Assembly (NCBI RefSeq): GCF_004010195.1
Contig: NC_057751.1
Span: 5,012,791 to 5,062,603 of the forward strand
DNA from: Chiloscyllium plagiosum
Taxonomy: Eukaryota
Direction of reading: 5' to 3'
DNA: 49,813 nucleotides
The position numbers and the translations under genes are program-made. The first letter of the stretch is position 1; each line of letters begins with the position of its first letter. Below, piece by piece: positions 415 to 37,943 of this stretch. The notes under the pieces were generated by a model that worked only from the letters and a program-made list of their open reading frames with translations, was not told the DNA's origin and did not search any database.

Positions 415-541
415 GGTCCCCATGCCTGTAGCCATCCCAGACGACTGTGTTGCAGTTTTCCATCAGGATCAGTGTCGCTACCACGTGCACAAGGTGGACG
501 ACAGCTCAGTGGAATGCCCAGTGTTCAGCAGCGTCCTGTAG
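415..541 (+). CDS. MSMB-like: Terminal coding exon of beta-microseminoprotein (PSP94)-like gene A; upstream exons lie outside the window
   Basis: Acceptor ctgcag|G, phase 2, then VPMPVAIPDDCVAVFHQDQCRYHVHKVDDSSVECPVFSSVL* (TAG 539-541). The P-x-x-C-x8-C-x-Y-x-V-x9-C pattern matches the last exon of MSMB. Cys spacing is identical to the exon at 21641. AATAAA follows at 626. Confidence 0.88.
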
Positions 542-625
542 TAAGCTGATCATCGCTTCAGTTCCTCAGCAGAGAGGCACGAACCAACACCAGGGGGCAG
601 CATGGCCCTTCTGAAAATATCTGTC

Positions 626-631
626 AATAAA
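626..631 (+). terminator. Polyadenylation signal of MSMB-like gene A
   Basis: AATAAA about 85 nt after the stop codon. Confidence 0.7.
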
Positions 632-1945
632 CTAACTGCATCGTGCTCAAACTTTCTCTGCTTTACAGTTCATCAAGAAGTCTTCATGTTGGGGTGGTTG
701 GAAGAGAGAGTGTGGAGAGTGGGTGGAGGAGAGAGAATGCTGTGTGAGGAGAGTGAATGACAGAGAGCATGCACATGTGGGGATAGAGATAGAGAGAGAT
801 AGAGAGAGAGAGAGATAGAGAGACACACACACACACAGTGTGGTGGGGAGAGAGAGTGCATGTGAGCGGGCAGAGAAAGAGACAGTGAGTACACAGGGTG
901 AGAAGAGGGAGAGCATGATGGGGGAGCTAAGGGGACAGAGAGAGAAAGGGACAGTGTTGGTGGTGTCCTAATGTTGGGAATGGTGGGAGCTATATTCCAA
1001 ACCCCAGGTCTGTTTTTCTATGGAGTTGCTGAGAAGTAATTCCATGATGATTTGGCCTCAGGAGGGGATGAGGTGCAAGGGATAGTGTCCTGGCCTCAGG
1101 GCAGGGAGCTCCAGGTTGATGGTCCAGCCCAGGAGCTGAAGGATGGCCAGGTATTCTGTGTGCTAGGCCTGAGCCAGTGAGTAGCAGTAAATCAGAGGCT
1201 GTTACTGCTGTAGGAGCAACACAGTCAGGAGAGAGCGTCACACCTCCACCCTCAGCTGAATGACAGGCTCCAGAAGGACATGTGACCCTGTTCTTCACCT
1301 CTCTCAAGTGTGTCCAGCTCTGCAGCTAGGGAATTCCCACTAGAGTCTCTGCTGTGGTGGCAAGAGGAAATCAGAGACTGAGAATTCTGTGACAGGAAAC
1401 TCCCTCCCAAACAGCACTGTGGCACACGGACTGCAGAGGCTCTGAAAGATGCTCAGTGCCACCTTGGGCAATGCCAACTCAGGTGGCAATGTACTGTTCC
1501 CCCAGCACATACACACAACAAACTGTGACCATTAGCTCCACACCGTTGTTCCACTGTCTGTCACACCATTATGTCCACTTCAGCCAATCCCCAAGGACAC
1601 CACACCTCAATGAAAGGACAGCTCGATAGCCTTTGGTCATCTTTCAATATTTTCCCTGAAAGACACACAGTCAAACTCCATTTTCCCAACATTCGAGGCA
1701 GCAGTACCTGTATTGGTATGATCCCTGGTCATGGGTAAATCCAATCCCATATTGACATCTAGCTAGATAGATCGCATTTAGTTCAGAAAGGTGACCTCTC
1801 CCTCCCACAAGGTTTCAGGTTTAGTTTGACCACTCAAACCCCAGCTCATTATCCAAAGGCAGTGTAAAAGAATAAACCAGATTCTTTTACACATCAGGCA
1901 AGTTTAATTATTTTGGAAGATGTGAAACAGCTGATCTCATGTCAT

Positions 1946-2262
1946 AGATTAGATTAGATTCGATACCCTCCAGTATGGAAACAGGCCCTTCGGCCTAACA
2001 AGTCCACACCGACCCTCCAAAGAATAACTCATCCAGACCCATTCCCCTATCCTATACTGACCCCTGACTAATGCACCTGACATGATGGACAATTTAGCAT
2101 GGCCGATCCACCTACCAGCACATCTTTGGACTGTGGGAGGAAACCGGAGCGCCCAGAGGAATCCCACGCAGACCCGGGGAGAATGTGCAAACTCCACACA
2201 GACAGTTGCCCGAGGCTGGAATTGAACCGGGGTCCCTGGTGTTGTGAGGCAGCAGTGGTAAC
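1946..2262 (-). mobile_element. tRNA-derived V-SINE (HE1-like) with CR1-type tail
   Basis: Minus strand has B-box GGTTCAATTCC, V-domain TGTGTGGAGTTTGCACATTCTCCCC and an (AATCT)n tail. Confidence 0.85.
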
Positions 2263-5200
2263 ACAAGGCTGCAGGCCAAGAAATGGGAAATGGCATGAAA
2301 ATAGGTGGTTACTCAGTGAGAGGCACCATCCAGCAATCCATACCAGAACTGATACACCAGAGAGAATACTCAGCTCTGTCTAATATGGTGTTTGGCTTGG
2401 CTGGAAATTGAATTCCCCAGGAAAGAGTTGAAAACCTATCCTTTGATTCATCATGTAACTGAGCCTAGACTTTGTCAGCTTCACAGAAGCCCTCCAGGGC
2501 TGAAACCAAACAGCTGGTCTTGAGCTTCAATGGAACTCTTTGCTCTGAGCTTGCTGCATTTTATAACACATTGAAATGATCGTGTCTTACATATTCAGCT
2601 TTAGCACTCCCAGACTGAAACTCAACACAATCCTTTCATTTCCAAGATATGAGCTGTTCCCAGAAACAGAACAAAACACTCAATTGCTTACCTCACAAAC
2701 CACAGCCTACTACATAACAATTTATCCATTCCCTCAAAACACACTCCCATGAAACACATTACACTTCAAGCAGTCTCTTCTCTCTCAGTGTGACTTGAAA
2801 TGAAATCACCATGGCTGCAGAAATCCTTTCAAGTCAGTCATTAAACTGCTTCAGATTGAGTGAAGAACCCATATGCCACGAGTTCAAATTCCAATTGTCC
2901 AAAATGGAAAGTGAGCAATTTTCAATAAATGTAAATCACACCCCTTCAATCACTGAAGGCAGAAACCATGGCAGTGCAAGCACTTCAATGTCCATGGTGG
3001 TAATGCAGGCTGCTGGGAGCAACCTCTCTCTGACACAGAGAGATTCAGGCACCATTGCTACATGGCAGCTCTTGCTCAGAGCTTCAGGCAGGAAGCTAAT
3101 GGTGGCTATTTGCTCTGGTCTGTACTTCCCCTCCTGAACAAACTTTCACATGCGCTGGAGAGAGAGAGAGACGGGATGGGTGGGCGAGGGGGGTGCAGGG
3201 TTGAGGTGTGAGGGACATTGACAGGGTAGATATGGAGAAATATTTCCCCTTCGGCACACCGTTTGAAGGATCCTGAGGTGATGTGAGGAAGATGCTGTTC
3301 ACCCAGAGGCTGGTGGCTAACTGGAAGGCCACTGAAAGGCTGGGACACGTCGGAACCCTCACCACACTTCAGAAGGGTTCAGATGATCACACAAAACATC
3401 ACAAGTACTCAAGGCTGCAGGTCAAGTGCTGGGAAATGGCATGAAAATAGGCAGCTACTCAGTGACAGGCATTAGAACAATGGGCTGAAGGGCCTCAGAC
3501 CAGGCTGGGGCAGCCCTGTATTGTTAGTTTAGCTGCGGACCCATGAGTTATGAGGAAAAGGCTACATGATGGAGAGCACTGACAGGAATGGCCGAGTGAA
3601 GACTACATCAGCCCTCCTGACTCACACCTCAGTGTCAGGAGGTGAGGAAAGTGGGTCTGAAATCACTCTTCAGAGACTGGTATCCCATCCCCAATCCCCC
3701 TGCATTTAGAACTACGCGGCTTTTGACGATAGCACTGTCTGTCCCTGAGTCCAGTGTTCAGCATCTCAATGTCACTGCCATTCACTCTCTCATGTCAGTC
3801 TGGGCTCCCTGATTAGACCCAATGAACAGCCGCAGTCAGGGCTGTTCCCACCGACTGACCTGATCACAATCTCTCAGGGTCTCTGGGAAGAGGTGAGAGA
3901 CCCAGGCCCCCATCCCCCCACCTGGATGGACATGGAAGCTGCTAAGGTGGTATTTGGGGGACTCCCGTGGGCAGAACTCCCTGTTTGTCGCTGGGTCAAT
4001 GACACAGGCACAGAGGACCCTGGTCCTGAGCATGGTGCTGCCACTTGCCCCAGTTCCCCGTGCTTCCCCCTAAGCCCCCACACTCCCCGACTTCCTTCCA
4101 CTTGGCCCATCGGAGGGAAAGGGAGTAGGGGGGCCCGGTCTGAGCTGAGGGGAGAAGAGAAAGCCAAGAGAGAACAGATCCATTGAGGTTCCAGACTGAA
4201 CAAGCGATGGGGAAGATGTAACCCTCCCCCTTCCCCCAATCTGTGTGACTGGCAGCAGCTGATCCATTCCCCCCACCCCAGGCAGCGCTCCCCCCATCGG
4301 AACTTCCCATGTCTCTCTCAGTCTGTCCAGAGGGCAGTTGGGGCATTGCCAGTGTCAGGTGTAGGGCCAGACCAGGTGAGGGTGGCAGACTGGCTGCCCT
4401 TTGAAGGACATATGAGGTGGGGCTTTCCCTGACAATAGATTCACGGTCACCACAGGGGACTCTTCATTCCACAGTTTTCATCTGATCCAGACCCCACCAT
4501 CTGCTGTAGCAGGATTGGAGCTCAGATCTCCAGGAGCTGAGCTGGTCAGAGTGGAAATGCCATGGAGGGAGGGAATGGGTGTGCCTGGCCGGGTGGGGGA
4601 ACGAGGCCGGGAGCAGCTATGTTCAAATGGTAGGTGAGTCCATGCACTATCTGGGAGTGAAGGTCTGTCCACTCAGTGTGGACGGTGGTCTCTGTGACAC
4701 CTGGGGGAGGGGGGATAAACCTTCGGCAGCCTTACTGATGGCTTAGTTTCTCAGAGATTTGAACCTGCTGGCTTGCCAAGAAGGGAACACTGCAGTGACG
4801 TGTCTTTCCCCACACCCTCAGGAACACAGCGTTTGTGCTGTCTCTGCAAGATAGCACAGAGCAGGCAGTCCGAGAAATACTCAGTGCTGTGACAAAGACA
4901 GAGTACTGAGAGTGCTGGAACTCTGAAGCCAGCACACAGTGTACTGCAGAAACTCAGCAAGGCATGGCAGTGTCTTGAGGCAGCGAGAGAGAGAGAGAGA
5001 GAGAGGGACAGTCCCCTCTTCACAGACTGAGTGCTATTGGACTGCAGGGGTCAGCTCCTAGACACAGTCTGGCATAAGGGGACTGAGAGAGAGAGACTGA
5101 CAGAACCACACTGCTCCATCTTCCTGTTGCATCTTGTGCAATCCCTGCTCCCACACACCCCCCTTTTGAATTTAGCCCGTTTCTTGCCCAACCCCCAACT

Positions 5201-5559
5201 GTGAAAGGGGGGAGGGTGAAACAATCTGGCAGCCTTCATCAGCCCAATCAGTCCTGAAACCAGAGAGAGAGAGAGACCTTTCCATGCTCCTCTCTGTCAC
5301 TGGCTCAAACTTCCCAATCAGCTCATCCCTTCATCCCCTTGCTCCATCCCCAAAGCCCCTCACCATTCCCCTTTCCACCCAGAATTAGTCACTATCCCTG
5401 GGTTACTGCACCCCGGACCAGAACTGGGACCCAGGTCCCAATTATCTGGCCCTTCAAACCCTCTTCTCCAGCATCGCCCTCCCCTTCTCAACTTTCCCCA
5501 CGCATGCACACACACGGACACTCACACATTCAATCACCATCCTGACTTGAAAATACATC

Positions 5560-5720
5560 ACTGAGTCAAAATCCTGGAACCCACTCCCTCAGGGTATTGT
5601 GGGTCAGCCCACAGCACATGGGCTGCAGCGCGTCAAGAAATCAGCTCACCCCCCACCTTCTCAAGGGGGCAACTAAGGACAGGGTAATAAATGTTGGGCC
5701 CAGTCAATGACTCCCATGTT
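5560..5720 (+). mobile_element. Old SINE/LINE 3' tail fragment (DeuSINE or L2-like; family uncertain)
   Basis: aaatcctggaac...ctgcagcg..tcaagaa..cagctcacc..caccttctcaag...ggg.aataaatg.tgg. Related decayed pieces are near 1390-1460, 4330-4540, 22200-22340, 38730-39120, 43360-43600 and 48120-48300. Confidence 0.5.
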
Positions 5721-6390
5721 TACATTAAAGTCAATATCGTGAGAAGGAGAGGTGATTTTTATGCAGGAGTGTTGAGGGTGGTGGAGGGACGGAGATAGAC
5801 AGAATGAAACCAGAAAGCAGCTGAGTAAGGGTCTGTTACTGTGCATGATCCCAGAGCACAGACAGACAGTCGGAGGAATGGAGTGTGCTGCTGAGTCAGT
5901 CAGTTCTTGGACAGGCAATGTTCCTGCTGTTTCTGCCTGCAGCTTCCAAAGCAATGGGCCTGTCAGCGGTGGGGACTGGCAGAGAGGAATAGGCCAGCTG
6001 CTGGACAAAGAGAGAGAGAGAGTGAGAGCGAGCAGGTCCTCTGGTACAGAGCTGACCATGACGGTGATGCTCATCTGGGAGAAGCCAGGGGAGACTCAGC
6101 CCCTTTCACACTCTCCCCCCACTGCCCACTCTGAGGACACAGGGCTGTGGGCTATGGGATCAGTTTGGCACACTGCTCACAGTCAGGGGTACCACGTACC
6201 CTCTCAGACAGAATCCCACTAAACCGCAAACAGCTCTCCCTACCCCTCAGCACTGGGTGAAGTCTGTACTGCTGAAGCATATTATCTGCTGTGTGTGTTC
6301 TCTGACACTGTACACAGCAGAGCACCCCATAGACAGCACTGTCAGAATCCTCATCATCACACTGCTCTAGCCCAGTGCTCGATCTATAAA

Positions 6391-6595
6391 GACTGGAAAA
6401 GCACAGCAGGTCAGGCAGCATCCGAGGAGCAGGAAAATTGATATTTCGGGCAAATCAGGAATAGAGCTCATGAAGGGCTTTTGCCCGAAACGCGATTTCC
6501 CTGCTCCTCGGATGCTACCTGACCTGCTGTGCTTTTCCAGCACCACTCGAACTTAGACTCTGGTTTCCAGCATCTGCAGTCATTGTTTTTACCTG
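6391..6595. mobile_element. Two Penelope-like 3'-end (pLTR) fragments in inverted orientation, with a degenerate hammerhead motif
   Basis: 6393-6460 (ctggaaaagcacagcaggtcaggcagcatccgaggagcagg) is the reverse complement of 6499-6541. The segment catgaagggcttttgcccgaaacgcg lies between them. Confidence 0.8.
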
Positions 6596-6609
6596 GAATA
6601 AAACTTCAA

Positions 6610-8056
6610 CACACACTCACACACACACACAGACACACACACACACACACACACAGACACACACACACNNNNNNNNNNNNNNNNNNNNNNNNNNNNNNNN
6701 NNNNNNNNNNNNNNNNNNNNNNNNNNNNNNNNNNNNNNNNNNNNNNNNNNNNNNNNNNNNNNNNNNNNNNNNNNNNNNNNNNNNNNNNNNNNNNNNNNNN
6801 NNNNNNNNNNNNNNNNNNNNNNNNNNNNNNNNNNNNNNNNNNNNNNNNNNNNNNNNNNNNNNNNNNNNNNNNNNNNNNNNNNNNNNNNNNNNNNNNNNNN
6901 NNNNNNNNNNNNNNNNNNNNNNNNNNNNNNNNNNNNNNNNNNNNNNNNNNNNNNNNNNNNNNNNNNNNNNNNNNNNNNNNNNNNNNNNNNNNNNNNNNNN
7001 NNNNNNNNNNNNNNNNNNNNNNNNNNNNNNNNNNNNNNNNNNNNNNNNNNNNNNNNNNNNNNNNNNNNNNNNNNNNNNNNNNNNNNNNNNNNNNNNNNNN
7101 NNNNNNNNNNNNNNNNNNNNNNNNNNNNNNNNNNNNNNNNNNNNNNNNNNNNNNNNNNNNNNNNNNNNNNNNNNNNNNNNNNNNNNNNNNNNNNNNNNNN
7201 NNNNNNNNNNNNNNNNNNNNNNNNNNNNNNNNNNNNNNNNNNNNNNNNNNNNNNNNNNNNNNNNNNNNNNNNNNNNNNNNNNNNNNNNNNNNNNNNNNNN
7301 NNNNNNNNNNNNNNNNNNNNNNNNNNNNNNNNNNNNNNNNNNNNNNNNNNNNNNNNNNNNNNNNNNNNNNNNNNNNNNNNNNNNNNNNNNNNAGGCACAC
7401 ATACACACAGACACATACACACACACACACTCACACACACACAGGCACACATACACACAGACACATACACACAGACACATACACACAGACACATACACAC
7501 AGACACATACACACAGACACATACACACAGACACATACACACAGACACATACACACAGACACATACACACAGACACATACACACAGACACATACACACAG
7601 ACACATACACACAGACACATACACACAGACACATACACACAGACACATACACACAGACACATACACACAGACACATACACACAGACACATACACACAGAC
7701 ACATACACACAGACACATACACACAGACACATACACACAGACACATACACACAGACACATACACACAGACACATACACACAGACACATACACACAGACAC
7801 ATACACACAGACACATACACACAGACACATACACACAGACACATACACACAGACACATACACACAGACACATACACACAGACACATACACAGGCACACAT
7901 ACACACAGACACATACACACAGACACATACACACTCACAGACACACACACACAGACACACATACACACAGATACATACACAGACACATACACACACTCAC
8001 AGACACACATACACACAGACACACACACAGACACAGACACACACTCACAGACACAC
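6610..8056. repeat. CA-rich tandem repeat (14-bp unit ACACAGACACATAC) spanning an assembly gap (N 6669-7392)
   Basis: Periodicity is directly visible. Confidence 0.95.
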
Positions 8057-9189
8057 ATGACAAAAGCTCCATCAAAGAGTGGGATTTTAAGGAGCACTGA
8101 AAGCAGAGATGTTTGAGGAGGGAATTTTAGAACAGGATGCTGCAGGCAGGGTTACTGATATTTGGAGAGGTGGGAATCTGGGAGGTTCTGGTGTTGGACG
8201 GGGTGCTGATGCTGAAACCAGCCGGGGTGGGGCTGGGAAATGCCCTTGAGTGACCGGGCTCCAGGCATGGTGCTATCTCCCTCAAAGGGTTGTGTGTGTC
8301 AAGGGAGGGGCTGGGGACCCAGGGCTTCTCAATGTGGAGCTCCCCGTGATGGACTGCTTTTGGGGGCTGTTTGAGTAAAGAAGACAGATGTTCCTCTCTC
8401 CCCGAATTTACAAGGAGCCCTTCTTGTGTTCCCCTCAGGCAGCCTCCTGGTCTCAGTCTCCCGTCTTGTCACAACCCCCTGACCTGAATAATTCCCACCT
8501 CGCTGTAACAGGGCCATGTAGTTCATTCAGAACCACCCAAGCAGTAACCAAACCAAGCAAGACAAAACCCAGTGTGATTCCTGGAACAAACGCACCCCCC
8601 CCGCTCACCCCCCCACCACGCTGTCTAACCATTCACCCAACTGAAATTATCTTTAATGATAGACCTGGGATTCCACTCCCAGACTGTAGCCTCTGTCATT
8701 ACCAAGTGGAGCTCAGCAGGGGAGTGCTTTGTTTTAGGACTGATTTATAATGTCTGCAGATTTTCCCCTCTCCCTGTTTCCTTCCGCATCAGGGGCAGCT
8801 CCCCCCCCACCCCACCCCACCCCCCCCCCCATACCCTGCCCTGATCAGGGGACCAATTCACCCCCCACCGTGGGTTAAAACCGGCCCCACAGAGGGTGAG
8901 AGGCTGTCTGCTTGGAGAAATGGCCCCTGTGGTTCCCTCAGTCTGTCAATGTGCCCAATTACTCGGGACAGTCCCAGAACTCAGTCTGGACTGCTGCCCT
9001 GAGATCTGAAAAACAGCTCTGTGAGGAAGCCCCAACCAATGGAAACACTCTGTCATTCTGTTCCACATCCAAGATCCACAAGGGGGGCATGAACAATTCC
9101 TCTGCAATACTGTGACCAATACCACTGGCCTTTCTTCCCACGGATATCGGTGGGATCTAGCTGTGTAAAAAAATCTCAATCCCTGGTCA

Positions 9190-9497
9190 GACCCCACATG
9201 GAGTATAGTGGATAGATCTGGGCCCCACACCCCATGAAGGATACACTGGCCTCGGAGGGAGTACGATGTAGATTAACAAGAATGATAACATGGACTTCAG
9301 GAATTAGGTTACAGGGAGAGATTACACAAACTAGCCCTGTTTCCTCTGGAATTGAGAAGGTTAAGGGCGATCTGAACAAGCTGTACAAGATATTAACAGG
9401 ACGAGACAGGGGAGAGGAAGATCAACCATTCCCACTGGTCGGAGATTGCAGAACCAGGGGGACAAAGACTGAGACTTAGGGCCACAGCATTCAGGAG
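9190..9497 (+). mobile_element. Decayed CR1 LINE 3' fragment
   Basis: Translates to ...KGDLNKLYKILTGRDR...RTRG, typical of the CR1 ORF2 C-terminus. Confidence 0.65.
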
Positions 9498-11180
9498 AGA
9501 TAGGAGATGCTGGAGATCAGAGTCGAAGAGTGTGCCGCTGGAAAAGCACAGCAGGTCAGGCAGCATCCGAGGAGCAGGAGAATCGACGTTTCAGGCAAAA
9601 TTTCTTCATCAGGAATGAGGCTGGGAGCCTCGGGGAGTGGAGAGATACTGAGATCCTTGTAGAGACAGGAGGAGAACTTCTTCAATGTTGACATCCTTGG
9701 AAGAGAATTCATAGTAAGTTTAAAATCAGCTAGAGGATCATGGGGTTGGAGGGTCCCAAGGCGGAAGATGAGACATTCTTCCTCCAGGCATTGGGTGGTG
9801 AGGGTGTGGCGATGGAGGAGGCCCAGGACCTGCATGTTCTTGGCGGAGTGGGAGGGGGAATTGAAATGTTCAACCATGGGGCAGTGGGTTTGGTTGGTGT
9901 GGGTGTCCCGGAGATGTTCTCCAAAACATTCCGCAAGTAGGCGCCATGTCTTCCCAAAGCAGAGGATACCACATTGGGAGCAATGGATACAGTAGATGAC
10001 CTGTGTGGAAGTGCAGTGAAACTTTGGTGGATGTGGAAGGCTCCTTTAGGGCCTTGGATGGAGATGAAGGTGGGAGGTGTGGGCGCAGGTTTTACAATTC
10101 CTGCGGTGGCAAGGGAAGGTGCCAGGACGCGAGGGTGGGTTGTAGGGAGGCATGGACCTGACCAGGTAGTCACAGAGGGAACGGTCTTTGCGGAAGGCGG
10201 GTAAGGGTGGGAAATGGTGGCGGAGGATGATGCGATGTATGCAGAGGTTGGTGGGGTGGAAGGTGAGGACCTGGGGTGGGGTTCTGTCCTTGTTGCGATT
10301 GGAGTGGTGGGGGACCTGGGGTGGGGTGGGGGGGTGGGGGTTCTGTCCTTGTGGTATTGGGAGGGATGGGATTCAAGGGCAGAGGTGCGGGAAGTGATGG
10401 AGATATGCTGGGAAGCATTGTTGACTATATCGGAGGGGAAATTGCAATCTCTAAAGAAGGTGTGTTCTGTGGTGGAACTGGTCCTCCTGGGAGCAGATCC
10501 GGCGGAGGCGGAGGAATTGGGAATACGGGATGTCATTTTTGCAGGAGGTAGGGTAAGAAGAGATGTAATCCAGGTAGCTGTGGGAGTCGGTGGGTTTGTA
10601 AAAAATGTCAGTGTCAAGTCAGTCGTCACTAATGGAGATGGAGAGGTCCAGGAAGGGGAGGGAGGTGTCAGAGATGGTCCAGGTAAATTTAAGGTCAGGG
10701 TGGAATGTGTTGGTGAAGTTGATGAATTGCACAACCTCCTCGCGGGAGCACGAGGTGGCACCAATGCAGTCAACAATGTAGCGNNNNNNNNNNNNNNNNN
10801 NNNNNNNNNNGGATGTAGGTGTAGAGGGATTGGATATCCATGGTGAAGATGAGGCATTGGGGGCCGGGGAAACGGAAGTCTTGGAGGAGGTGGAGGGCGT
10901 GGGTGGTGTCTCGAATGTATGTGGGGAGTTCCTGGACTAGGGGGGATCGGACAGTGTCGAGGTAGGTCGAGATGAGTTCAGTGGGACAGGAGCATGCTGA
11001 GACAATGGGTCAGCCAGGGTGGTCAGGCTTGTGGGTCTTGGGAAGGAGGTAGAACCGGGCAGTGTGGGATTCCCGGACTAAGAGGTTGGAAGCTGTGGGT
11101 GGAAGATCTCCTGAGGTGATGAGGTTATGGACGGTCTGGGAGATGACGGTTTGGAATCCAGCATCTGCAGTTTGTGTGTG
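9497..11180 (-). mobile_element. Penelope-like retroelement (RT C-terminus + GIY-YIG endonuclease + 3' pLTR with hammerhead remnant), frameshifted
   Basis: Minus-strand peptides include GPKGAFHIHQSF and VEHFNSPSHS..MQVLGLLH..LEEECLIFRLGTLQPH, and an FYLLPKTHKP RT motif near 11050. The pLTR is at 9500-9620. A short inverted pLTR piece is at ~11153-11180. Confidence 0.85.
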
Positions 11181-11316
11181 TCTAACTTCTCCTTCAGCCA
11201 GCAGTGCAGAGAACAGAGTGTCACGTCACAGTGGGAGCACAGTGTTCCCCAGTGAAGGAACAGCGTTTTCTCAGATAACAGGACTGACGATACCCTGAAC
11301 GGGTGACAGCAGGCTG

Positions 11317-11324
11317 TATAAAAG
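11317..11324 (+). promoter_or_regulatory. Candidate TATA box for MSMB-like gene B
   Basis: TATAAAAG in non-repeat sequence 4.9 kb upstream of exon 2. The link to the gene is inferred only. Confidence 0.3.
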
Positions 11325-12610
11325 AGTGCAGCTCTGTGCTCTCTCTCTGAACAGTTGAGAAGCTAGGTCACCCTGTTTCTGTCTTCGTACACCCCGTGAG
11401 TAACAAGGCAGCTGTTCCTGGTACACCCTGACGTCTGAGCGCCTGTGCTCTCGCCCCTGACCGAGACCAGCTTGACCATCCATTGGAAGAACCAGGAGGA
11501 AGCTTGTTCCATCGGACTGAACATTGGGCGTGGTCTCCCTCAAACCCACCAAGAACAAAGCCTCTAGCACTTTCCACACGGAACTCAACAAAGACTTCCC
11601 TTCAGGAGCAGTCATGGTGCAGGTTAGTACATGAAAAGTTATCAGAGAGAGGACATTCGGCCCATTGAGTCATTGCTGACTCCCTTCACCCCATTCCCCA
11701 ACACTAGGCCCAGAGCCATTGGCTGAAATCCTTTGTCAGTGTGTGTGAGATGAGGGTTTCTGTCTCTTGCACGCTCGCTGGTACTGGGAGTGTGTGCTGA
11801 ACTCCAGCCGAGGTTCAGCTGATGTTGGCTGGGTTCCTGAACATGGTCAGAGGAGGGTATGGATGGAGAGGGGGAGCAGGCTTGGAATGAACAATACCTC
11901 GGAACACTGACATTCCTGTGGGTCAGCCATTGTCCTGTCTTTAATCCCACACCCTCTCCCAAAACCAATCCAGTCACAAAGACTGATTATCAAACATCAA
12001 CCGGAGAGAGAGAGAGAGAGAGGGAGAGACTTCAGATCAGAAAAGGGACTCAGCCTCAGATTAAACTCTCCTCCATCCTCCGAAAATGTAAAGCTGTCTC
12101 GGGTTCTCCTGGGGAGGTAGTATGGAGATTGGGGCAGCAGTTTTCAGTATCACCCTCAGAGTTTCAGCTGAAGGTCATCTGATGATGTAGATATGGCTCC
12201 CTGAAGGGGTCAGTCCAAGGGAACTCTCTTGAACACTTGGGGGATAAATATTCCATGTGTGAGAATCCATTCACAATGACCATCATGAGCTCAGCTCCCC
12301 TGAGCCATTGAGTGGGTCTGAGCTGAAAGCCAGTGCCCCAGTTTGTAGTTAGTGAGTGAAATGAACAGTTAGTGCTATGTCACCTTACCTTCCTTTTCAG
12401 CGTTAGAACAATGACCTGATATTTCCACCTGAAACTCTCACACCATGTTTCAACCCAGCTTGTGTCCAGTCAGGGAGTCCTGGAGATGTACAGCATGGAA
12501 ACAGACCCTTCAAAACAACTCACAGGTCAGGAAGAAATCTGCACTGACATTTGGAGAGAGTTCCCTTTGTGATTTGGTCTTGATTTTGATTTTTGGTGTT
12601 ATTCTAACCA

Positions 12611-12779
12611 TGCAGAGAGACAGATTTACCTCTTCCTCCAACCACCACATTCCTGATGAAGGGCTTATGCCCGAAACGTCGATTCTCCTGCTCCCTGGAT
12701 GCTGCCTGACCTGCTGTGCTTTTCCAGCACCACTCTAATCTAGACTCTGATCTCCAGCATCTGCGGCCCTCGCTTTCTC
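12611..12779 (+). mobile_element. Short Penelope-like 3'-end insertion with 12-bp target-site duplication
   Basis: Flanked by TTATTCTAACCA at 12599-12610 and 12780-12791. Same sequence family as the pLTR at 9500-9620. Confidence 0.85.
12649..12684 (+). ncRNA. Minimal type I hammerhead ribozyme motif (family 1)
   Basis: attc CTGATGA a GGGC ttat GCCC GAAA CGTC gatt. Both core boxes are present, with a 4-bp stem II, palindromic ACGT in place of stem III, and a GUC cleavage triplet. Stem I is weak. Confidence 0.75.
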
Positions 12780-13174
12780 TTATTCTAACCACGGCCCACA
12801 GTGCTCTGAGGTAGCTCAGCAACTCGCCCAGTGTACCATCCTCTCAGCTGAACAGAATAAACTTTAAACCCTTCAACGGCCCCTGGGTGGGGTCACTGGC
12901 AGGATTAGCAGCAAGAATGGGGAGTTTGTTGAGATCTTTGTTTGACCCCGTGGCGATTAAACAGGCTCCCATTGTTCATTAAATTCCTCCAAATAAATAG
13001 CTTATTCTTATTTCAATCTTCTCACTGACTTCATTCCTGGAAGGACACAGAATTTGATCTTCTCTCGTTGCCCTCCAGGTTTTGTTGGTCCTGCCCTTTG
13101 ACACAATGGTTTCTCCCCAGCTCCTTGGCACATGGTCTCTGCTATTTGCCTGCAGCTGCTTACACCATTCCCTC

Positions 13175-13210
13175 ATGATCAAAGCAGTGGCTGTCTTTGC
13201 CAGTCTCATG
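13175..13210 (+). CDS. One candidate first coding exon of MSMB-like gene B (MIKAVAVFASLM, or only the final ATG)
   Basis: ATG|gtatgg phase-0 donor, in frame with exon 2. The alternative candidate is ATG|gtatac at 15760-15762, downstream of CCAAT at 15688. Unresolved. Confidence 0.25.
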
Positions 13211-13865
13211 GTATGGTGGCTGATTGAGGACATTGTTTTTCTGCTCCAAGCTGCAGATATGACATTGGCTATTCAGGAGGGCAGCTTGGAGGAAACACTT
13301 CCCCTACAGGACCAGAGGAACCCTCTGTCATTAAAGATAGTCCCTGTCAGCACATCAAAACTCAACATCTTCTTGTCAGACTGCAAACTGGGAAAGATTG
13401 AAGCAAAACATGTGTCCAGCCCTGATCTCATTGAACCACAGCACGGGGGGAGCAGGAGAGAGAGCATCACTTTCTGGAACAAGGGGTCAAGGAGGTGTGC
13501 AGGGAATAATAATCTCCCTCAGAAATATAATGGGCCAAATGATCTCCTTCAGTGGTCTCTGACATTACAATCCCCAAACTACCTGGTCCACAGGTCATTC
13601 GAAGGAGGGAGGGAGAGGGAGAGGGCGAGACAGAAGGAGATAGACAGAGAGAGAGAAAGAGAAGGAAGGGGAAAGAGAGACGGAAGGGGAGAGGAAGAAA
13701 TAGAAAATGAGAGAGAGATGGAAGGAGAAAGAGGGAGAGAAGGCAAGATAGAAACGAGAGAGGAGGGAGGAGAGAGATGGAAGGAAAGAGTGAGAGAAAA
13801 AGAGAGGGAAACAGAGAAATGGAAAGAATGAAGGCAAGAGGGGGAAGGAGAGGAGTTCTTGAGTT

Positions 13866-15071
13866 ACAGATTTATCCAACACGGAAACAGACCCTTCGGT
13901 CCAACCTGTCCATGCCGACCAGATATCCCAACCCAATCTAGTCCCACCTGCCAGCACCCGGCCCATATCCCTCCAAACCCTTCCTATTCATATACCCATC
14001 CAAATGCCTCTTAAATGTTGCAATTGTACCAGCCTCCACCACNNNNNNNNNNNNNNNNNNNNNNNNNNNNNNNNNNNNNNNNNNNNNNNNNNNNNNNNNN
14101 NNNNNNNNNNNNNNNNNNNNNNNNNNNNNNNNNNNNNNNNNNNNNNNNNNNNNNNNNNNNNNNNNNNNNNNNNNNNNNNNNNNNNNNNNNNNNNNNNNNN
14201 NNNNNNNNNNNNNNNNNNNNNNNNNNNNNNNNNNNNNNNNNNNNNNNNNNNNNNNNNNNNNNNNNNNNNNNNNNNNNNNNNNNNNNNNNNNNNNNNNNNN
14301 NNNNNNNNNNNNNNNNNNNNNNNNNNNNNNNNNNNNNNNNNNNNNNNNAATAAAGGAAAGCATACCAAACGCCTTCTTCACTATCCTATCTACCTGCGAC
14401 TCCACTTTCAAGGAGCTATGAACCTGCACTCCAAGGTCTCTTTGTTCAGTAACACTCCCCAGGACCTTACCATTAATTGTATAAGTCCTGCCTGGATCTG
14501 CCTTTCCAAAATGCAGCACCTCACATTTATCTGAATTAAACTCCATCTGCCACTCCTCAGCCCAATGGCCCATTGATCAAGATCCTCTTGTAATCTGAGG
14601 TAACCTTCTTCACTGGCCAGTACACTTTCAATTTTGGTGTCATCTGCAAACCTACTAACTATACCCCTTATGCTCACATCCAAATCATTTATGTAAATCA
14701 CAAAAAGCAGGTCATAGACCTCCAGTCTGAAAAACAACCTCCACCACCACCCTCTGTCTTCTACCTTTGAGCCAGCTCTGTATCCAAATGGCTAGTTCTC
14801 CCTGTATTCCATGAGATCTAACCTTGCTAACCAGTCTCCCATGGGGAACCTTGTCGAACGCCTTACTGAAGTCCATATAGATCACATCTACTGCTCTGCC
14901 CTCATCAATCTTCTTTGTTACTTCTTCAAAAATCTCAATCAAGTTTGTGAGACATGATTTCCCACGCACAAAGCCATGTTGACTATCCCTAATCAGTCCT
15001 TGCCTTTCCAAATACATGTACATCCTGTCCCTCAGGATTCCCTCCAACAACTTGCCCACCACTGACGTCAG
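13866..15071 (-). mobile_element. Young 5'-truncated CR1 LINE (RT region to 3' tail), with gap 14043-14348
   Basis: QHGFVRGKSCLTNL, DVIYMDFSKAFDKVPH, FADDTK, WQMEFNSDKCEVLHFG. There is an internal deletion/frameshift near 14715. Confidence 0.93.
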
Positions 15072-15132
15072 GTCAGTTGGACAGAGGAAGGGAAGGTGGT
15101 GGAGGAAGGGATGGAGGGATGGATGTAGAGAC

Positions 15133-15163
<31 letters not shown>

Positions 15164-16235
15164 ATGACCATGTGGCCAGGTTTCAGATCAGCAGTTGAAT
15201 GGTTGTTGTCAGGTTGAAACCCTGCCTTCAGTCTGTCTCTTGAGACAATTGTTTGACCCGAATGTGGCATCCTGTACCAGGAAGGGTCACATTTACTCCC
15301 TGGGATTGGGAGCCACTGGCACATTGCCTGAGGGCACTGCTTTCTACCGATGGGAACAATGCTGTGGAGAAGGTGGGTGAATGCAAGACATGGATGGGGG
15401 AGATGGGGGAGGGGGAGTGATGGGGTTGGGAGCAGGTTCACACTAACGCCCACACGGAGCTCTGGAGCAGGTCCTGTCAATCTGTATCAAACAGGCCCGT
15501 GCACAGACAGAGAGAGAGAGAGACACACACACACAGACACACAGAGAAACAGAGACACGCAGACACAGAGACACACAGACGGAGAGACAGAGATACACAC
15601 ACACACACAGACACAGAAACACACAGAGATACCCAGATGAATGGAGCCTTTAGGCTCTGAGTTGGAGTCAGTTGGAGGGCTATCTGACCAATCAGCGGGA
15701 CGCAGGGATGCTGTTCAACACAGGCTGAGACAGAGAGCTTTGGACACAGAGCCTGAGAGATGGTATACAGCTTCATGTAGCCAGATCCTGGCACACAGTA
15801 ACTCTCTCTCTGAGGGTACCTGGTTTTCTCTCTGAGTGACAGGCTGATAGGGAGCTCAGTCAGTCCTCAGTCTATCCCAGAAACACTCCTTCACTGCCAG
15901 CTCTCCCCCACCCAGCCTGCTTTCTCTCTCCCTCCCACAGAGGTAACAAGGTGAACAATGAGCAGAAGGGTGTAACACTAGTGATGATGGCGTCTAATAC
16001 CTGTATTGAGAGGCCGGGCAGTCAGTGTGCAGCACTGTCTAGGTGCCTGTGTGGACACATGTGCCCATTGTGATCCCCCCTCTGAGGCTGGAGACTGGCA
16101 GGGAACACTGCTACCCAGGGCTGGTTAACTGTTGCAGAAGAAGAAACTGACAGAAATAGGGCAGATCCTTCTGTGTGCCCCACACCAATCCCATTCAGAG
16201 CAGCAGCTTCTCATATTCCCCCTTGTCTTTCACAG

Positions 16236-16329
16236 AAAGCCCTGTTGTGTGTCCTGCTCCTCCTGAAGATCCTCGATATGTGTGAGGCTGACTGCAAATT
16301 TGTGATGAAGTCAGAGGCAGGAGCAGCAG
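16236..16329 (+). CDS. MSMB-like: MSMB-like gene B exon 2 (signal peptide and first Cys)
   Basis: Strong acceptor ttgtctttcacag|. Reads KALLCVLLLLKILDMCEA/DCKFVMKSEAGAA + G (94 nt, phase 0 to 1). Donor is CAG|GCAAGT (GC type). Confidence 0.85.
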
Positions 16330-16829
16330 GCAAGTAACTCTTCCATCATTCACTCCTACCCTCACTCATTCCCCTCTCACCACACTCCTGAACCTCATAT
16401 TTCCCAAAGGGGCCACACGATGCTTTCAACGGAGAGTGGGACAGAGACAGAGAGAGAGAGAGAGAGAGACAGAGAGAGAGAGACAGAGAGAGAGTGGGCA
16501 GGCACATGCACACAGAGACACGCAGACTCAGCTAGAGATGCAAATACACAGACACACGCACAGACAGAGATAGAGATAGAGACACATTCAGAGAAACACA
16601 CACTGACCTTGAGGATATGTGACGTTTTTATCCTCACTGTTCTACATGGATAGCACTGACCTCCTGGTAGGGAGGACATGTCCCAGGAGATACTGATAGA
16701 GGCAGCTGATTGAAGTTGACTGGAAGCAATGTGCTGGGAATGTGGGCCAGCATGCAGAGATGGGAACATGGGGAGGATTCAGGAAAGAGAACGTGGTGAA
16801 CTGAGGGGTCATTCACCGCTGGAACAAGG

Positions 16830-17332
16830 ACAGGCTCCTGCAGAGTACAGACACACACACTCACGTACACATACAGGCATAGACACACACAGACAAACAT
16901 TCACGCACATACAGATACACATAAAGACACAGATACACACACACTATGATAGACACACACAAAGACACACAGACGTAGACACTCAGACACACAGACACAC
17001 ATAGAAACACACTCACACACACAGACACACAATACATACTCACAGACACACAGATATAGATACACACAGACTCACAGATAGAGATACACACAGACACGCA
17101 CTCACTCACACATNNNNNNNNNNNNNNACACACACACAGGCACAGACACAACACACACACAAAGACACAACACACACAGACACGACACACCACACACACA
17201 TACACACACCATACACACACATAGACGCACCACACACACATCCACACACAGTCATAGACACACACAGACGCAGACATAGACACACAGACAGAAAGCCATA
17301 GAGAGAGAGACACACACACTCACACACATATA
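16830..17332. repeat. Degenerate (CA)n-rich tract in intron 2
   Basis: Directly visible; small gap at 17114-17127. Confidence 0.9.
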
Positions 17333-18263
17333 CAGTGACTGATTCCCCAAGGAACCCTCAGTTTGCCAATGTTCTGAATGCAGTGAATGTTAAGCTGTTA
17401 TGTTCCATTCTCAACACCAGAGAGCAGTAACATCCCACTAATAAATAATTCCTCCATCAGCAGCCCCATACACACACACACACACACCCAGATACACAGA
17501 GTTGAGACGAGCTTGGTGCAAAGACTGGCCCTGTGGCTGTGAGACTCTGAAATGGAACCTCACTGTTCCCACACTGTGCCAGGGAGGAGAATATCCACCA
17601 TGCACATCCCAGTCACTGCTATTACCACAGCCATAGCTTACATTCACATCGCCTCTTTCAGGCACCAAAACCTCCCTCAAGGCGTTTTGACAGAAGTGTT
17701 GTCAAACATAAGATAATATTATGCCTTTTAAGTGGACAGGAGGTGAGAGGAACAAAGATTGGTTCTTCAGAGCAATTGATGAGGAGTCCCAGAAAGAAAC
17801 GGGGAGAGATGAAGACAGAGAAAGGGAGGGAAAAAAGAGAGAGAGAGGGAGAGGAAGGGAGAGTGCAAGGGAAAAGAGCAAGGGGGAGAGAGAGAGAGAC
17901 AGAGGACCCAGAGCGAGGTGAGGAATAGAGAGAGACACACAGACGGGAGAGAGAGGGATAGTGAGAGAGACCAGGAGAGAGAGAAAGAGAAAGAGATGGA
18001 GAGAGAGAATGAGAGAGACAGAGGGATTAATCGAGGGAATTGCAGAGCCAGGGACGCAGGTAGGTGAAGGCATGAGTAAAATCTCCGGTGTAATCTCCGA
18101 GATCTCAGAGGAAGGTGGAGACGGAATCAGGGTGGGGAGGGATTTGAGAAGGGAGCTACATGGATTGGGGGGAAACAGTTCCAGATCAGTGAGCACATGG
18201 CCAGGTCAAGCTGAGGAAGGTTGGTGCTGAACACTAAGGCTGTGTTGTTGCTTGTTTTTGCAG

Positions 18264-18366
18264 ACTGCATGGACAATGGGATGAACTACAAGGTGGGAGC
18301 CATGTGGAAGAGTGAGGATTGCTACACGTGTTACTGTGGGAAGGTGACAGCAATCTGTTGTACTGA
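18264..18366 (+). CDS. MSMB-like: MSMB-like gene B exon 3
   Basis: tttttgcag| (D)CMDNGMNYKVGAMWKSEDCYTCYCGKVTAICCT(D) |gtaagt; 103 nt, phase 1 to 2. W-x4-C-x2-C-x-C-x6-CC is the PSP94 signature. Confidence 0.93.
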
Positions 18367-18664
18367 GTAAGTCACACCCAGACACACACTGTCTTCATCC
18401 CCCATCAGCTCTCTCCCAGGGATGGGGTTTCGGGTTACCCAGGATAGGAATGGCCAACAGTAACCCTATAGAGAGAACCAGGACAATTCCCATTGCAGAG
18501 CTGACTGGCAGACACATGTTAACAGTATCCCATAGAGACAGCTCAGGCTGCCATCGTAGTGTATGTGTGGCCATTGGTCTGACGTGAGGGGTACTCAGAA
18601 AAACCCCCTCCCCACACTCTCAGAGACACTAGGCAGAGTAGAGAGGGGACTGACAAAGAACAGG

Positions 18665-19260
18665 ACATCATTGGAACAGGCCCTTCGGCCCATCAACAGT
18701 GAACCCCTTTATCATCTAGAAAGCATTTTGCCCCTACAGTCCATATCCCTCTATTCCTGCCCGGTCATATCTCTGTCCAAACACCTTTACTGCATCCACC
18801 TCTACCAACTCTTCTGGCAGCACATTCCACACACTTAGCACCCTCTGTGTCGAAGACGTACCCCTCACATCGCCTTTAAACATTCCCCCTTTCATCTGGT
18901 GTCCCCCCATTCATTAACAGTTCTCCCATGGGCGAAAGTCTGTGATAATCCATTCTGTCCACGTCCCTCAGAAATGTGTTAACTTCCATCAGATCACCCT
19001 CCTTGTCCTTCCATGTTAAAGTGAAAACAAACACAGTTTGTCCAATCTCTCCTCATCACTAACACCCTCCAAACCAGGCAACATCCTGGTAAACCCTGTC
19101 TGTACCCTCTCCAAAGTATCCACATCCTTCAGGTAGTGTGGTGACCCGAACTGGACGCAATATTCCAAGTGTAACCCTCAGAAAAGGAATATTTGATAAC
19201 ATGACATGTTAATTTTTATCTTCCATGCCCTGACTGAAGGTAGCCATGCCATTCACCTGA
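18665..19260 (-). mobile_element. Decayed CR1 3' fragment in intron 3
   Basis: aggcccttcggccc tail and ccaggcaacatcctggtaaacc...gacccgaactggacgcaatattccaa (minus strand: LEYCVQF motif). Confidence 0.7.
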
Positions 19261-19614
19261 TGGCCTTGTGTTGTCTCTCTCAGGAAGTGTGGTCCCTGTG
19301 TGTGTTGGTGTTTCTGAGGGCTTCTGCCTTCAGCTGTCCCTGCTCAAACATCCTGGTGTACTGCTCTATCCATTATTACACAACACGCTGTGTACAGAGA
19401 GACCTTCAGTCATGATTAATAATGATCAGACTGTCCCATGCTCTGGGACATTGCAGAGTCTGAAGTACCTTGAGGCTTTGTATGTAGGACCGCGTGGAAG
19501 ATAGACCACAGATGTCAGATCTCCCCAAGGTTACTGACGTTTACAATGTGAGACAGAGTGACACAGTGCCTGGGCTCTGTGCTCACTGACAGGACATGGT
19601 ACACTGACTGGCAA

Positions 19615-20020
19615 CATGACACATACACACACACAGACACACACATAGACACACGAACACACAGACACATGTACACACACACAGACAGACACGTACACAG
19701 ACAGACACACGTACACACACACAGACACACATGTACACACACAGACACATAGACATGTGCACACACATACACACAGATACAGACACACATGTACACACAC
19801 AGATACAGACATACATGTACACACAGACACACATATACATACACAGACACACACATACACACATGTACACGTACACACAGACACACACAGAGACGCACAC
19901 GTACACACCACACATGTAAACATACACACAGACACACGTACACACAGACACACATGTACACACACATGTACACACAGACACACATGTACATGTACATACA
20001 GACACACGTACACACAGACA
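19615..20020. repeat. Degenerate (CA)n/CATGTA tract
   Basis: Directly visible. Confidence 0.9.
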
Positions 20021-21089
20021 GTGACTGAATGATCTTTCTGCCAGAACACCTCACTTTGTGAATGTCATGTGACCAGCTTAAAGGGACAGGCGTCTGGAAT
20101 CTCTGTGTCACACAACAAAGTCTGTGAAAGGTGCCAGAGAAACACACATCCTTCTGCCTCTCCCATTAGTCCATGACAACACGATCCAAGCTGGTGGGGG
20201 AAGTCACCAACACTTGAACCAACAAAGCCTGTTCGATACAACAACAACAACCACCTGAGTTTAGATAGCACTTTGAGCATAAAGAAAGATCCTAAGGTGC
20301 CTGACAGGAGCATTAGGAAACCAATAGACAGAGAGAGTCATACCAAGCACCTCGATTGAGGAGATCCCGGTCCAGAGGCAGAAAGCTTTCGGGAAGAGTC
20401 CCAGTGATTGGCAATAGCTCAAGGTCAGACTCTTCAGGGGAACAGGTAAAATCGAGGGGACACACAAAGGGGAGCCCCTAGAAGGCAGAGCAGGGCTGGA
20501 GCAAGTTACAGAGATCGGGAGGGGCTGTTGGCGCTGGAGGGGTTTATAGAAATAGGGAGGGGTAACAACACAAAGGCATTTGGAAGGAGGGTGAGCAGGG
20601 AAAAATGAGGAGTGTATTTGAGCGTGGATGAGGGGGTCAATGTTGGTGCGTAAGCACGGGGGGGGGGGGTAAGAGGAGGATGGGAGAGACAGTGTACAGA
20701 GAGACAGAGAGACAGACAGCAGAGCTTTGGACCAGCTCGGTTTGATAGAGGAGGGAAAGTGAGATGGAGAGGCTGTAAAGAGTGACAGGACACAGAAACA
20801 GACCCGACCCAGTGTTGGCATCATCGAGAGATCAGTGACAGGACTGAGGCTTTGAGCAGGAACAGGAGCAGCAGCACAGGCAGGGGGATACGGGCAGGGG
20901 GGTACTGGCAGGAGAAAGGGGCAGGAGGCAGCGGGGTACAGGCAGGGGAGAGGGGCAGGATCTAGTGGGGCCCTTTACAGAAGGTGTGAGCTCAGCACAG
21001 GCTGAGACAGAAGGGAAGGTGTGAGTTTGTCCAGAAGCTAGTGCTCTGGCTGGTTTCTCACTAAGGGAAAGGAGTTGGACTGATCCAGC

Positions 21090-21561
21090 CTCTCTCTCTC
21101 TCTCCCTCCCGTCTCTCTCTCTCTCTCTCCCTCCCGTCTCTCTCTCTCTCTCTCCCTCCCGTCTCTCTCTCTCTCTCTCCCTCCCGTCTCTCTCTCTCTC
21201 TCTCCCTCCCGTCTCTCTCTCTCTCTCTCCCTCCCGTCTCTCTCTCTCTCTCTCCCTCCCGTCTCTCTCTCTCTCTCTCCCTCCCGTCTCTCTCTCTCTC
21301 TCTCCCTCCCGTCTCTCTCTCTCTCTCTCCCTCCCGTCTCTCTCTCTCTCTCTCCCTCCCGTCTCTCTCTCTCTCTCTCCCTCCCGTCTCTCTCTCTCTC
21401 TCTCCCTCCCGTCTCTCTCTCTCTCTCTCCCTCCCGTCTCTCTCTCTCTCTCTCCCTCCCGTCTCTCTCTCTCTCTCTCCCTCCCGTCTCTCTCTCTCTC
21501 TCTCCCTCCCGTCTCTCTCTCTCTCTCTCCCTCCCGTCTCTCTCTCTCTCTCTCCCTCCCG

Positions 21562-21604
<43 letters not shown>

Positions 21605-21632
21605 CCTCCCGTCTCTCTTTCTCTCTCTCTCT
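21090..21632 (+). repeat. Polypyrimidine minisatellite (25-bp unit CCCTCCCGTCTCTCTCTCTCTCTCT) abutting the exon 4 acceptor
   Basis: 25-bp periodicity; no adenine between 21088 and 21638. Confidence 0.95.
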
Positions 21633-21640
21633 TGTCCCAG

Positions 21641-21752
21641 CTATGCCCAAGTGCCTGACGTGCCGAGTAACTGTGAAGCTGTTTTTGACAAGAGGCTCTG
21701 CAAGTACAAGGTGTACAGCAAGGAGAACCTGGACGTCCTGTGTGATATCTGA
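21641..21752 (+). CDS. MSMB-like: MSMB-like gene B terminal exon 4
   Basis: ttgtcccag| (D)YAQVPDVPSNCEAVFDKRLCKYKVYSKENLDVLCDI* (TGA 21750-21752). Completes the 10 mature Cys; intron phases 0/1/2 are as in MSMB. Confidence 0.92.
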
Positions 21753-21919
21753 GTACTGCTGGGAGAACGGTACCGTGGAGAGAATCTACTCAAGCTGCTT
21801 TCACATCACTCCCCTGCCTGTGCTTCTGCAGATGTGCAACCCCTGAAGGAGAGTCCGTAATCCCCAACTGCTCTGTATTCTCACAATCTCACCTCTCTGG
21901 ACTGCTGTCAAAATCCTTC

Positions 21920-21925
21920 AATAAA
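21920..21925 (+). terminator. Polyadenylation signal of MSMB-like gene B
   Basis: AATAAA about 170 nt after the stop. Confidence 0.75.
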
Positions 21926-36900: not shown

Positions 36901-36980
36901 GACACACACATGCACGCACACACAGACACACGCACGCAGACACACACGCATGCAGACACACACACGCATGCACACACGCA
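30930..36980. repeat. Large CA-rich tandem array; core 31270-36770 is a homogeneous 33-bp unit (AGACACACACGCACGCAGACACACACACCACAC), ~165 copies
   Basis: Lines recur every 660 bp (20 units); the ORF track shows 11-aa periodicity. Confidence 0.97.
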
Positions 36981-37904: not shown

Positions 37905-37943
37905 AGCTTTGACAAAGGGTCAGTTAGACTCGAAACGTCAGCT
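37905..37943 (+). ncRNA. Minimal hammerhead ribozyme motif with U3:A8 core variant (family 2), in a short element at ~37860-38010
   Basis: AGCT TTGACAA a GGGTC agtta GACTC GAAA CGTC AGCT: perfect 4-bp stem I, 5-bp stem II and a GUC triplet. Confidence 0.72.

Follow-up and report, generated by a model that had tools for sequence, protein, structure and literature searches.

A 49,813-nucleotide stretch of the Chiloscyllium plagiosum genome (assembly GCF_004010195.1, contig NC_057751.1, positions 5,012,791 to 5,062,603 of the forward strand; hereafter the window) contains two short same-strand exons with matching cysteine positions, which raises the question of what genes they terminate and what those genes encode. 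A model-generated reading of the letters alone, here called the sequence-only reading, had proposed a tandem pair of divergent beta-microseminoprotein genes. Our analysis indicates that the exons belong to the last two genes, gene A and gene B, of a tandem microseminoprotein cluster (the PSP94/MSMB/USM/SSP family), and that gene B most likely encodes a secreted, evolutionarily constrained binder with five disulfides. These are real genes of a known family, already in databases under the family name, and not a new kind of system; the novelty is modest: the structure of a cluster of three genes is corrected, and a shark subfamily emerges that is frozen and lacks the tail.

The exons and signals of the two genes are as follows.

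16236..16329, plus strand: gene B exon 2, encoding the signal peptide, its cleavage site, the first Cys and Phe4, with a GC donor at its end.
18264..18366, plus strand: gene B exon 3, encoding the core of the Greek-key domain with 6 Cys, the conserved Trp and a 21-residue run invariant in all B orthologs.
21641..21752, plus strand: gene B terminal coding exon, encoding the C-terminal domain with 3 Cys and just 2 residues past the last Cys.
21920..21925, plus strand: gene B polyadenylation signal AATAAA, read from the sequence.
415..541, plus strand: gene A terminal coding exon, encoding the C-terminal PSP94 domain with 3 Cys, a 7-residue tail past the last Cys and the stop codon TAG at 539-541; the window begins downstream of exons 1-3.
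626..631, plus strand: gene A polyadenylation signal AATAAA, read from the sequence.

The coordinates and counts that the sequence-only reading gave for the two terminal exons were reproduced. Both follow AG acceptors (413-414 and 21639-21640) and are in the same phase, their first base completing a split codon; the cysteines of each fall at codons 11, 20 and 34, and the two exons agree at 10 of 36 residues. This exon pattern, which was picked post hoc, occurs twice in the window compared with a mean of 0.01 in 100 shuffles, none of which reached two. When a family profile built from our own family hits was run on the 1614 stop-free segments of the window, it recovered only the three family exons (E 8e-11, 6e-10 and 2e-8), the next match being at 0.66. 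The genes had been described as absent from the open reading frame (ORF) track, which reflects nothing more than exons of 31-41 codons; the locus is nonetheless present in public annotation, in RefSeq and under the family name although mis-modelled, so the genes are not hidden ones.

Gene B almost certainly belongs to the PSP94/MSMB family (PF05825), as had been proposed. Five B proteins scored 39.9-42.4 bits against the Pfam PSP94 profile (cut-off 22), including the RefSeq protein identical to exons 3 and 4 (42.4 bits, E 1e-10), while single exons on their own fell short at 21.8, 15.2 and 14.5 bits. The gene A exon reached only E 0.053 with Pfam PSP94 alone and E 6e-10 with the family profile. 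A profile of five B orthologs matched six PDB sequences, all of them MSMB family members, with chicken MSMB3 the best (E 4e-11). The ten mature Cys of gene B stand in family spacing, and the Phe two residues past the first Cys (Phe4) aligns. In an AlphaFold model of the Heterodontus ortholog, used as a stand-in (predicted local distance difference test score of 85), a signal helix and eight short strands are seen with no terminal strand, and the top five Foldseek matches to this model were all MSMB family structures (6RWC, at E 1.5e-7, 3IX0, 6IMF chain B, 2IZ3 and 1XHH). The B ortholog is thus predicted to take the two-domain all-beta PSP94 fold. The ESM Atlas features likewise named PSP94 only. 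Matches of single exons to VWC, PLAC and Fn1 fell below cut-off and reflect the shared Cys-rich module, and the second-best library match to the B profile (89 bits), a sea-urchin VWC-repeat protein, was off target.

Joining exons 2-4 of gene B produces one uninterrupted frame that codes for ten mature Cys and runs to the stop codon at 21750-21752. The assembly in the sequence-only reading is thereby retained, with its start amended to a candidate three-codon exon 1. The precursor so assembled has 105 residues with its signal peptide, and the mature chain has 84 residues with the ten family cysteines. The hydrophobic N-terminus (hydropathy peak 3.5) bears out the earlier proposal of secretion, and hydropathy together with the ortholog alignment places cleavage one residue ahead of the first Cys. 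Intron 2 has to start with a GC donor at 16330; the GT that follows four bases on leads to a stop after 49 residues. We are confident that exon 2 with this GC donor is real: full-length orthologs in five shark records align across all exons at 65-77% identity, and tblastn of full-length orthologs matched exon 2 at E 2e-4 to 1e-2, with 7-10 of 13 mature residues identical. In the catshark orthologs exon 2 ends in three extra residues, Gly-Lys-Ser, which correspond to the first codons of the window's intron 2 (16327-16337 region); judged from this protein comparison alone, the GC donor may be old, with a shifted donor in catsharks. A 25-base CT-rich array at 21090-21629 ends right before the exon 4 acceptor.

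The public models of gene B begin differently. Exons 3 and 4 are identical (35/35 plus 36/36, or 71/71 residues) to the C. plagiosum RefSeq proteins beta-microseminoprotein-like X1 and X2 (XP_043537641.1 and XP_043537643.1), for which RefSeq places the first exons within intron 2.

17721..17742, plus strand: first exon of RefSeq isoform X2, an intron-2 stretch encoding no signal peptide.
17996..18059, plus strand: first exon of RefSeq isoform X1, an intron-2 stretch encoding no signal peptide.

The N-termini of X1 and X2 have hydropathies of 0.0 and -0.6, compared with 3.5 for exon 2, and the first Cys is lost. Because the full-length orthologs contain exon 2, the gene B model of the sequence-only reading is preferable to that of RefSeq; the Cetorhinus B model likewise lacks exon 2. 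A search with exon 3 matched four clusters at the 90% level, whose 11 members come from seven shark species; ten carry the name beta-microseminoprotein-like and the other is labelled hypothetical/beta-microseminoprotein. Six shark species besides Chiloscyllium have named orthologs of B.

For the start of the gene, two further features are pertinent, both inferred.

11317..11324, plus strand: TATA box of a candidate gene B promoter, the sole TATA-pattern match within 541-16236, in a region unrepeated in the window.
11345..11622, plus strand: candidate gene B exon 1, with an ATG-free leader, Met-Val-Gln at 11614-11622 and a phase-0 GT donor; the exon start is guessed from the TATA position.

The B orthologs start with Met-x-Gln ahead of the exon-2 residues, and the window offers Met-Val-Gln followed by a GT donor at 11614-11622. 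The start at 11614 lies about 300 bases past the TATA match in a strong start context, and the leader (11345-11613) has no ATG. Exon 1 of gene B is therefore likely to comprise these three codons and not a lone Met, which would give gene B the four-exon-type layout with a tiny coding exon 1, exons 2-4 being clear and exon 1 a candidate. Two other exon-1 candidates were set aside, one at 10674 that sits among reverse transcriptase (RT)-like repeat fragments and one at 3999 with a poor donor. The window has four assembly gaps (6669-7392, 10784-10810, 14043-14348 and 17114-17127; 1071 N in total), which could conceal a small exon.

MSMB is described as fast-evolving in PMC3268785, which also reports MSMP and avian MSMB3 to be conserved and tandem arrays to be common. 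The sequence-only reading had likewise noted rapid evolution for the family; our comparisons instead identified gene B as the most conserved member of the cluster. Core identity between the B proteins of S. torazame and those of S. canicula, Cetorhinus, Heterodontus and Heptranchias was 69/70, 60/70, 59/70 and 54/70, compared with 49-53, 49-50, 40-42 and 36-38 of 70 for the long-tail paralogs of those species pairs. Across seven B sequences 44 of 71 positions are invariant, including 21 consecutive ones in exon 3, and B is single-copy in each of the seven species in which it was found. Purifying constraint on gene B is very probable, and B appears to be the slowest-changing and most conserved cluster member, with much less constrained neighbours.

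The B proteins also stand apart as a group. In a tree of the family the B orthologs form one clade (support 95/98) with a stem of 0.62, tips mostly below 0.1 and a branching order like the shark species tree; a second tree gave support of 100 and a stem of 1.11. Partial, duplicate and multi-domain rows were excluded from both (25 dropped in the second). The comparison with MSMB and MSMP for which the sequence-only reading had called thus yielded a single B clade outside MSMP, without a supported position within the family. A profile of the B cluster gave that cluster 211 bits, and none of the other sequences among 131 matches exceeded 89. The tail past the last Cys is 1-2 residues long in 7/7 B sequences versus 7-8 in 78/130 family matches, and five B sequences are acidic, with isoelectric points (pI) of 4.5-5.0. 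All 11 members of the four B clusters are sharks, in agreement with the cartilaginous-fish membership proposed earlier, and 12 batoid and chimaera paralogs are at most 39% identical to B, although the search behind this shark-only distribution was word-based and shows absence elsewhere only weakly.

Gene A and a third paralog are merged in public annotation. LOC122543229 (XP_043537639.1 and XP_043537640.1), a 210-225-residue 'uncharacterized protein' whose accessions directly precede those of gene B, is a fusion of a separate paralog, here called U, to gene A read in the wrong frame. Paralog U, which has orthologs in Stegostoma and Heterodontus, accounts for the first 101 residues, and the fused protein finishes in the last exon of gene A in another frame (43/44 identical). 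From these matches, the cluster order is read as U (outside the window), A and B, with at least three genes. The family profile on stop-free segments found no further family exon in the remaining 28 kb downstream of B. With U upstream of A and nothing of the family past B, gene B ends the cluster, and the proposal that the window holds a cluster edge stands. Elsewhere there are 2-6 paralogs per species: six in Leucoraja, four in S. torazame, three each in S. canicula and Heterodontus, and two each in Cetorhinus, Heptranchias, Rhinoraja and Callorhinchus. Within a species these paralogs sit on contigs of equal length, which indicates that they share one chromosome but does not imply adjacency. 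Paralog U has just 8 Cys: the first is missing, as is one member of the neighbouring Cys-Cys pair; these two are the partners of one MSMB3 disulfide (C2-C43), and their paired loss is common to Chiloscyllium, Stegostoma and Heterodontus.

Gene A appears to be an ordinary long-tail, faster-changing family member, its exon having its best match (57%) in a Cetorhinus beta-microseminoprotein-like paralog that is itself such a member. That gene A is instead a decaying copy and not a working paralog strikes us as rather unlikely. The shifted reading frame that the RefSeq chimera uses allows only Leu or Ser at the conserved, nearly invariant Trp position, and no in-frame A protein was found (0/1 candidate; proteins of 73-2000 residues), both of which would suit decay. 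The terminal exon, however, is open and has all three Cys, a normal tail, a stop codon and AATAAA, and the stretch just upstream of it, in the shifted frame, permits the full family spacing C-x2-C-x-C-x6-CC (1/5000 shuffles) and forces no stop in 72 listed steps.

From these observations we propose how the gene B product might act. B would have arisen by tandem duplication before the living sharks split, changing fast and then freezing. Its product would be secreted and would act not as an enzyme but by binding a single conserved host protein, with the N-terminal Greek-key sheet as the binding face, made up of the beta1 edge, which includes Phe4, and the unvarying stretch encoded by exon 3. 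As described in PMC8857485, PSP94 uses beta1 and F24 of its precursor to bind CAP domains at nanomolar affinity, and SSP-2 binds a CRISP despite its short C-terminus, according to PMC7150914. By analogy, the partner of B could be a CAP/CRISP protein, the ligand class common to PSP94 and snake SSP-2, an assignment that we put just short of an even call. The five-disulfide two-domain fold, the need of the PSP94 dimer for the beta10 strand and the dimerization of MSMB3 via its C-terminal domains are described in PMC8167871. Because its terminal strand is absent, B could not form the edge-to-edge dimer of PSP94, and would be a monomer like SSP-2 or a C-terminal-domain dimer like chicken MSMB3.

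A more far-reaching history, which we consider doubtful, is that B is an undescribed, shark-restricted subfamily that underwent a burst of change, lost its terminal strand, has hardly altered from the common ancestor of living sharks onward and was lost from rays and chimaeras. If so, B would be a third independent tail-altered paralog given one fixed job, after avian MSMB3 and marsupial USM; one conceivable setting is the egg capsule or the seminal fluid of sharks, where the 21-residue exon-3 run would be the binding face for a conserved partner.

Several observations weigh against the picture of gene B as a constrained secreted binder. No spliced joint or loose end across exon 2 was found in four sequencing runs mapped to 15640-16430, of which three had no coverage and one gave two unspliced contigs (15693-15870 and 16184-16400); this outcome neither supports nor refutes the gene B junctions. 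Among 16 rows for 21641-21940, no run was recorded as RNA, and 4 were of unrecorded kind. On a crude matrix, the donors of the RefSeq first exons in intron 2 score 9.5 and 10.4 versus 6.3 for the GC donor. The long-tail comparisons are possibly not between strict one-to-one orthologs, and the rates are protein identities, not ratios of nonsynonymous to synonymous substitution (dN/dS). The deep placement of B has no supported grouping, with clade tests giving approximately unbiased P values (p-AU) of 0.30 with MSMB3-like and 0.36 with SSP2-like sequences. PSP94 is described in PMC7150914 as engaging CRISP-3 by beta1 and the terminal strand, the latter of which B has lost.

Other roles for gene B fare less well. 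MSMP has a chemokine-like role, and B could similarly be a conserved secreted signal, neural or developmental, nearer to MSMP or zebrafish msmp2 than to seminal PSP94. Strong conservation is a hallmark of MSMP (as given in PMC3268785), one S. torazame cluster neighbour carries the NCBI label msmp2, zebrafish msmp2 is named among the products that cerebrospinal-fluid-contacting neurons secrete (bioRxiv 10.64898/2026.04.14.718607) and Xenopus msmb3 is reported to regulate neural crest migration (PMC8167871). We nevertheless find such a role unlikely, as B is only 30% identical to platypus MSMP, does not have the long tail of that protein and groups apart from the MSMP clade, and the msmp2 label belongs to a paralog other than B.

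It is quite unlikely that A and B are both fast-evolving SSP-like inhibitors in an arms race with venoms, parasites or rival sperm, carried by an expanding array. Accelerated SSP evolution is described in PMC7150969, a short C-terminus is common to B and SSP-2, gene A is just 57% identical to its best match, and the long-tail paralogs diverge quickly and show lineage-specific duplication (two copies in S. torazame and five in a single Leucoraja/Rhinoraja clade). B itself, however, is near-invariant across sharks and single-copy in each of seven species, and its grouping with SSP2-like sequences is neither shown nor rejected (p-AU 0.36). An SSP-type arms race fits the long-tail paralogs better than it fits B.

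Chicken MSMB3 is the best structural and profile match of B and, as described in PMC3268785 and PMC8167871, is likewise a conserved outlier in a tandem array and lacks the beta10 strand. On these grounds B might be a reproductive-tract coat or egg-capsule protein in the style of avian MSMB3, which is cationic, heparin-binding and antibacterial. We hold this to be improbable: the cationic antibacterial mechanism of the MSMB3 type (outlined in PMC9363672) does not suit B, because B is acidic (pI 4.5-5.0 in five sequences versus 9.5 for two MSMB3-like proteins), and no supported clade unites B with MSMB3-like sequences (p-AU 0.30). A reproductive expression site of B without the cationic mechanism is possible. 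Last and very improbable is that the RefSeq models are right, with exon 2 unspliced in this species and B truncated, unsecreted or decaying: despite the non-canonical GC donor, the strong GT donors on the intron-2 exons, the missing spliced joint at exon 2 and the similarly shortened Cetorhinus model, exon 2 has an open frame in the right phase and matches five full-length ortholog records, the N-termini modelled by RefSeq lack a hydrophobic stretch as well as the first Cys, and exons 3-4 are undecayed.

The rest of the window is largely repetitive. Pfam searches of downstream neighbours, on 256/256 filtered frames (minimum length 45 residues; the 30.9-37 kb array and frames of low complexity excluded), found only the endonuclease and RT of a long interspersed nuclear element (LINE), although short exons would escape them, and Rfam gave 0 matches on the window. 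Within that limit the window shows no recognizable neighbour gene, be it ARID5A/ELP3, which flank the USMH/SSP locus, or ARID5B/FAM21C, which flank that of MSMB. One sub-threshold Cys-rich Pfam match between A and B (150/174 frames) was rejected as noise. The broken LINE, putatively of the CR1 type, spans 43983-47500 (Pfam endonuclease at 43983-44402, reverse transcriptase at 45116-45877), and a fragment similar to it lies on the minus strand near 13940-15070. Decayed RT-like fragments at 9500-11200 and 48800-49813, perhaps of Penelope-like origin, are related and in opposite orientation, with no Pfam match. A dispersed 110-150-base repeat has at least seven copies in both orientations (6393-6581, 9505-9620, 12625-12782, 24717-24814, 44633-44774, 46960-47094 and 49281-49415). 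Two copies, 90% alike, of a repeat resembling a short interspersed nuclear element lie at 2114-2262 and 44795-44943, and the translation of this repeat recurs inside the Chiloscyllium punctatum model of paralog U, where it is probably a false exon. Downstream of gene B there is a 33/98-base array (27437-28198), followed by a 6 kb tandem array at 30931-36977 (33-base unit, about 183 copies, 96% match) that is either a minisatellite or an assembly artefact. An inverted 106-base pair (37905-38010 and 38890-38995; 99% identical, about 880 bases apart) may be two repeats copied recently or the termini of a small element. At 38290-38420, donor-like GTGAGT sites facing opposite ways and a minus-strand ATG could mark the first exon of a neighbour gene, with no Pfam support.

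A literature search over titles and the start of abstracts found no paper on shark microseminoprotein genes, the family term is absent from one shark skin proteome supplement file and the main text of a Greenland shark plasma paper, and the sequence table of PMC3268785 holds one skate expressed sequence tag and no shark entry. The function of the family is unsettled, partly through its fast change, and a near-invariant shark paralog offers a clean handle on a conserved partner. B also offers a natural way of asking if CAP/CRISP binding or dimerization depends on the terminal strand. In addition, three database gene models can be corrected: a secreted protein modelled without its signal peptide, and two fused genes, one of them out of frame.

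Among known systems, B shares with human and pig PSP94 (PDB 3IX0, 2IZ3 and 2IZ4) the ten-Cys pattern, the two-domain fold, the Phe after the first Cys and, if its candidate exon 1 is right, the four-exon layout with a tiny coding exon 1; exon 1 of PSP94 codes for Met alone (PMC3268785) and the candidate exon 1 of B for three residues. PSP94 is fast-evolving, and its terminal beta10 strand forms the dimer and part of the CRISP-binding edge, whereas B is slow and without this strand; gene A keeps a 7-residue tail. Chicken MSMB3 (PDB 6RWC; TM-scores 0.66/0.77, 31% identity) is, like B, a conserved outlier in a tandem array without beta10, but MSMB3-like proteins are basic (computed pI 9.5) with a 7-residue tail, in contrast to the acidic B with its tail of 1-2 residues, and the trees neither support nor reject orthology. 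MSMP/PSMP shares with B high conservation within its subfamily and differs in having three coding exons and a long tail, in its 30% identity and in forming a separate clade. In marsupial USM most of the C-terminal domain has been lost, whereas B lacks the last strand only. Snake SSP-2 (PDB 6IMF chain B; fold match E 2.5e-5) and USMH/USM have in common with B a tandem array and a short C-terminus, but the SSPs are recent, accelerated anti-venom proteins, whereas B is old and frozen.

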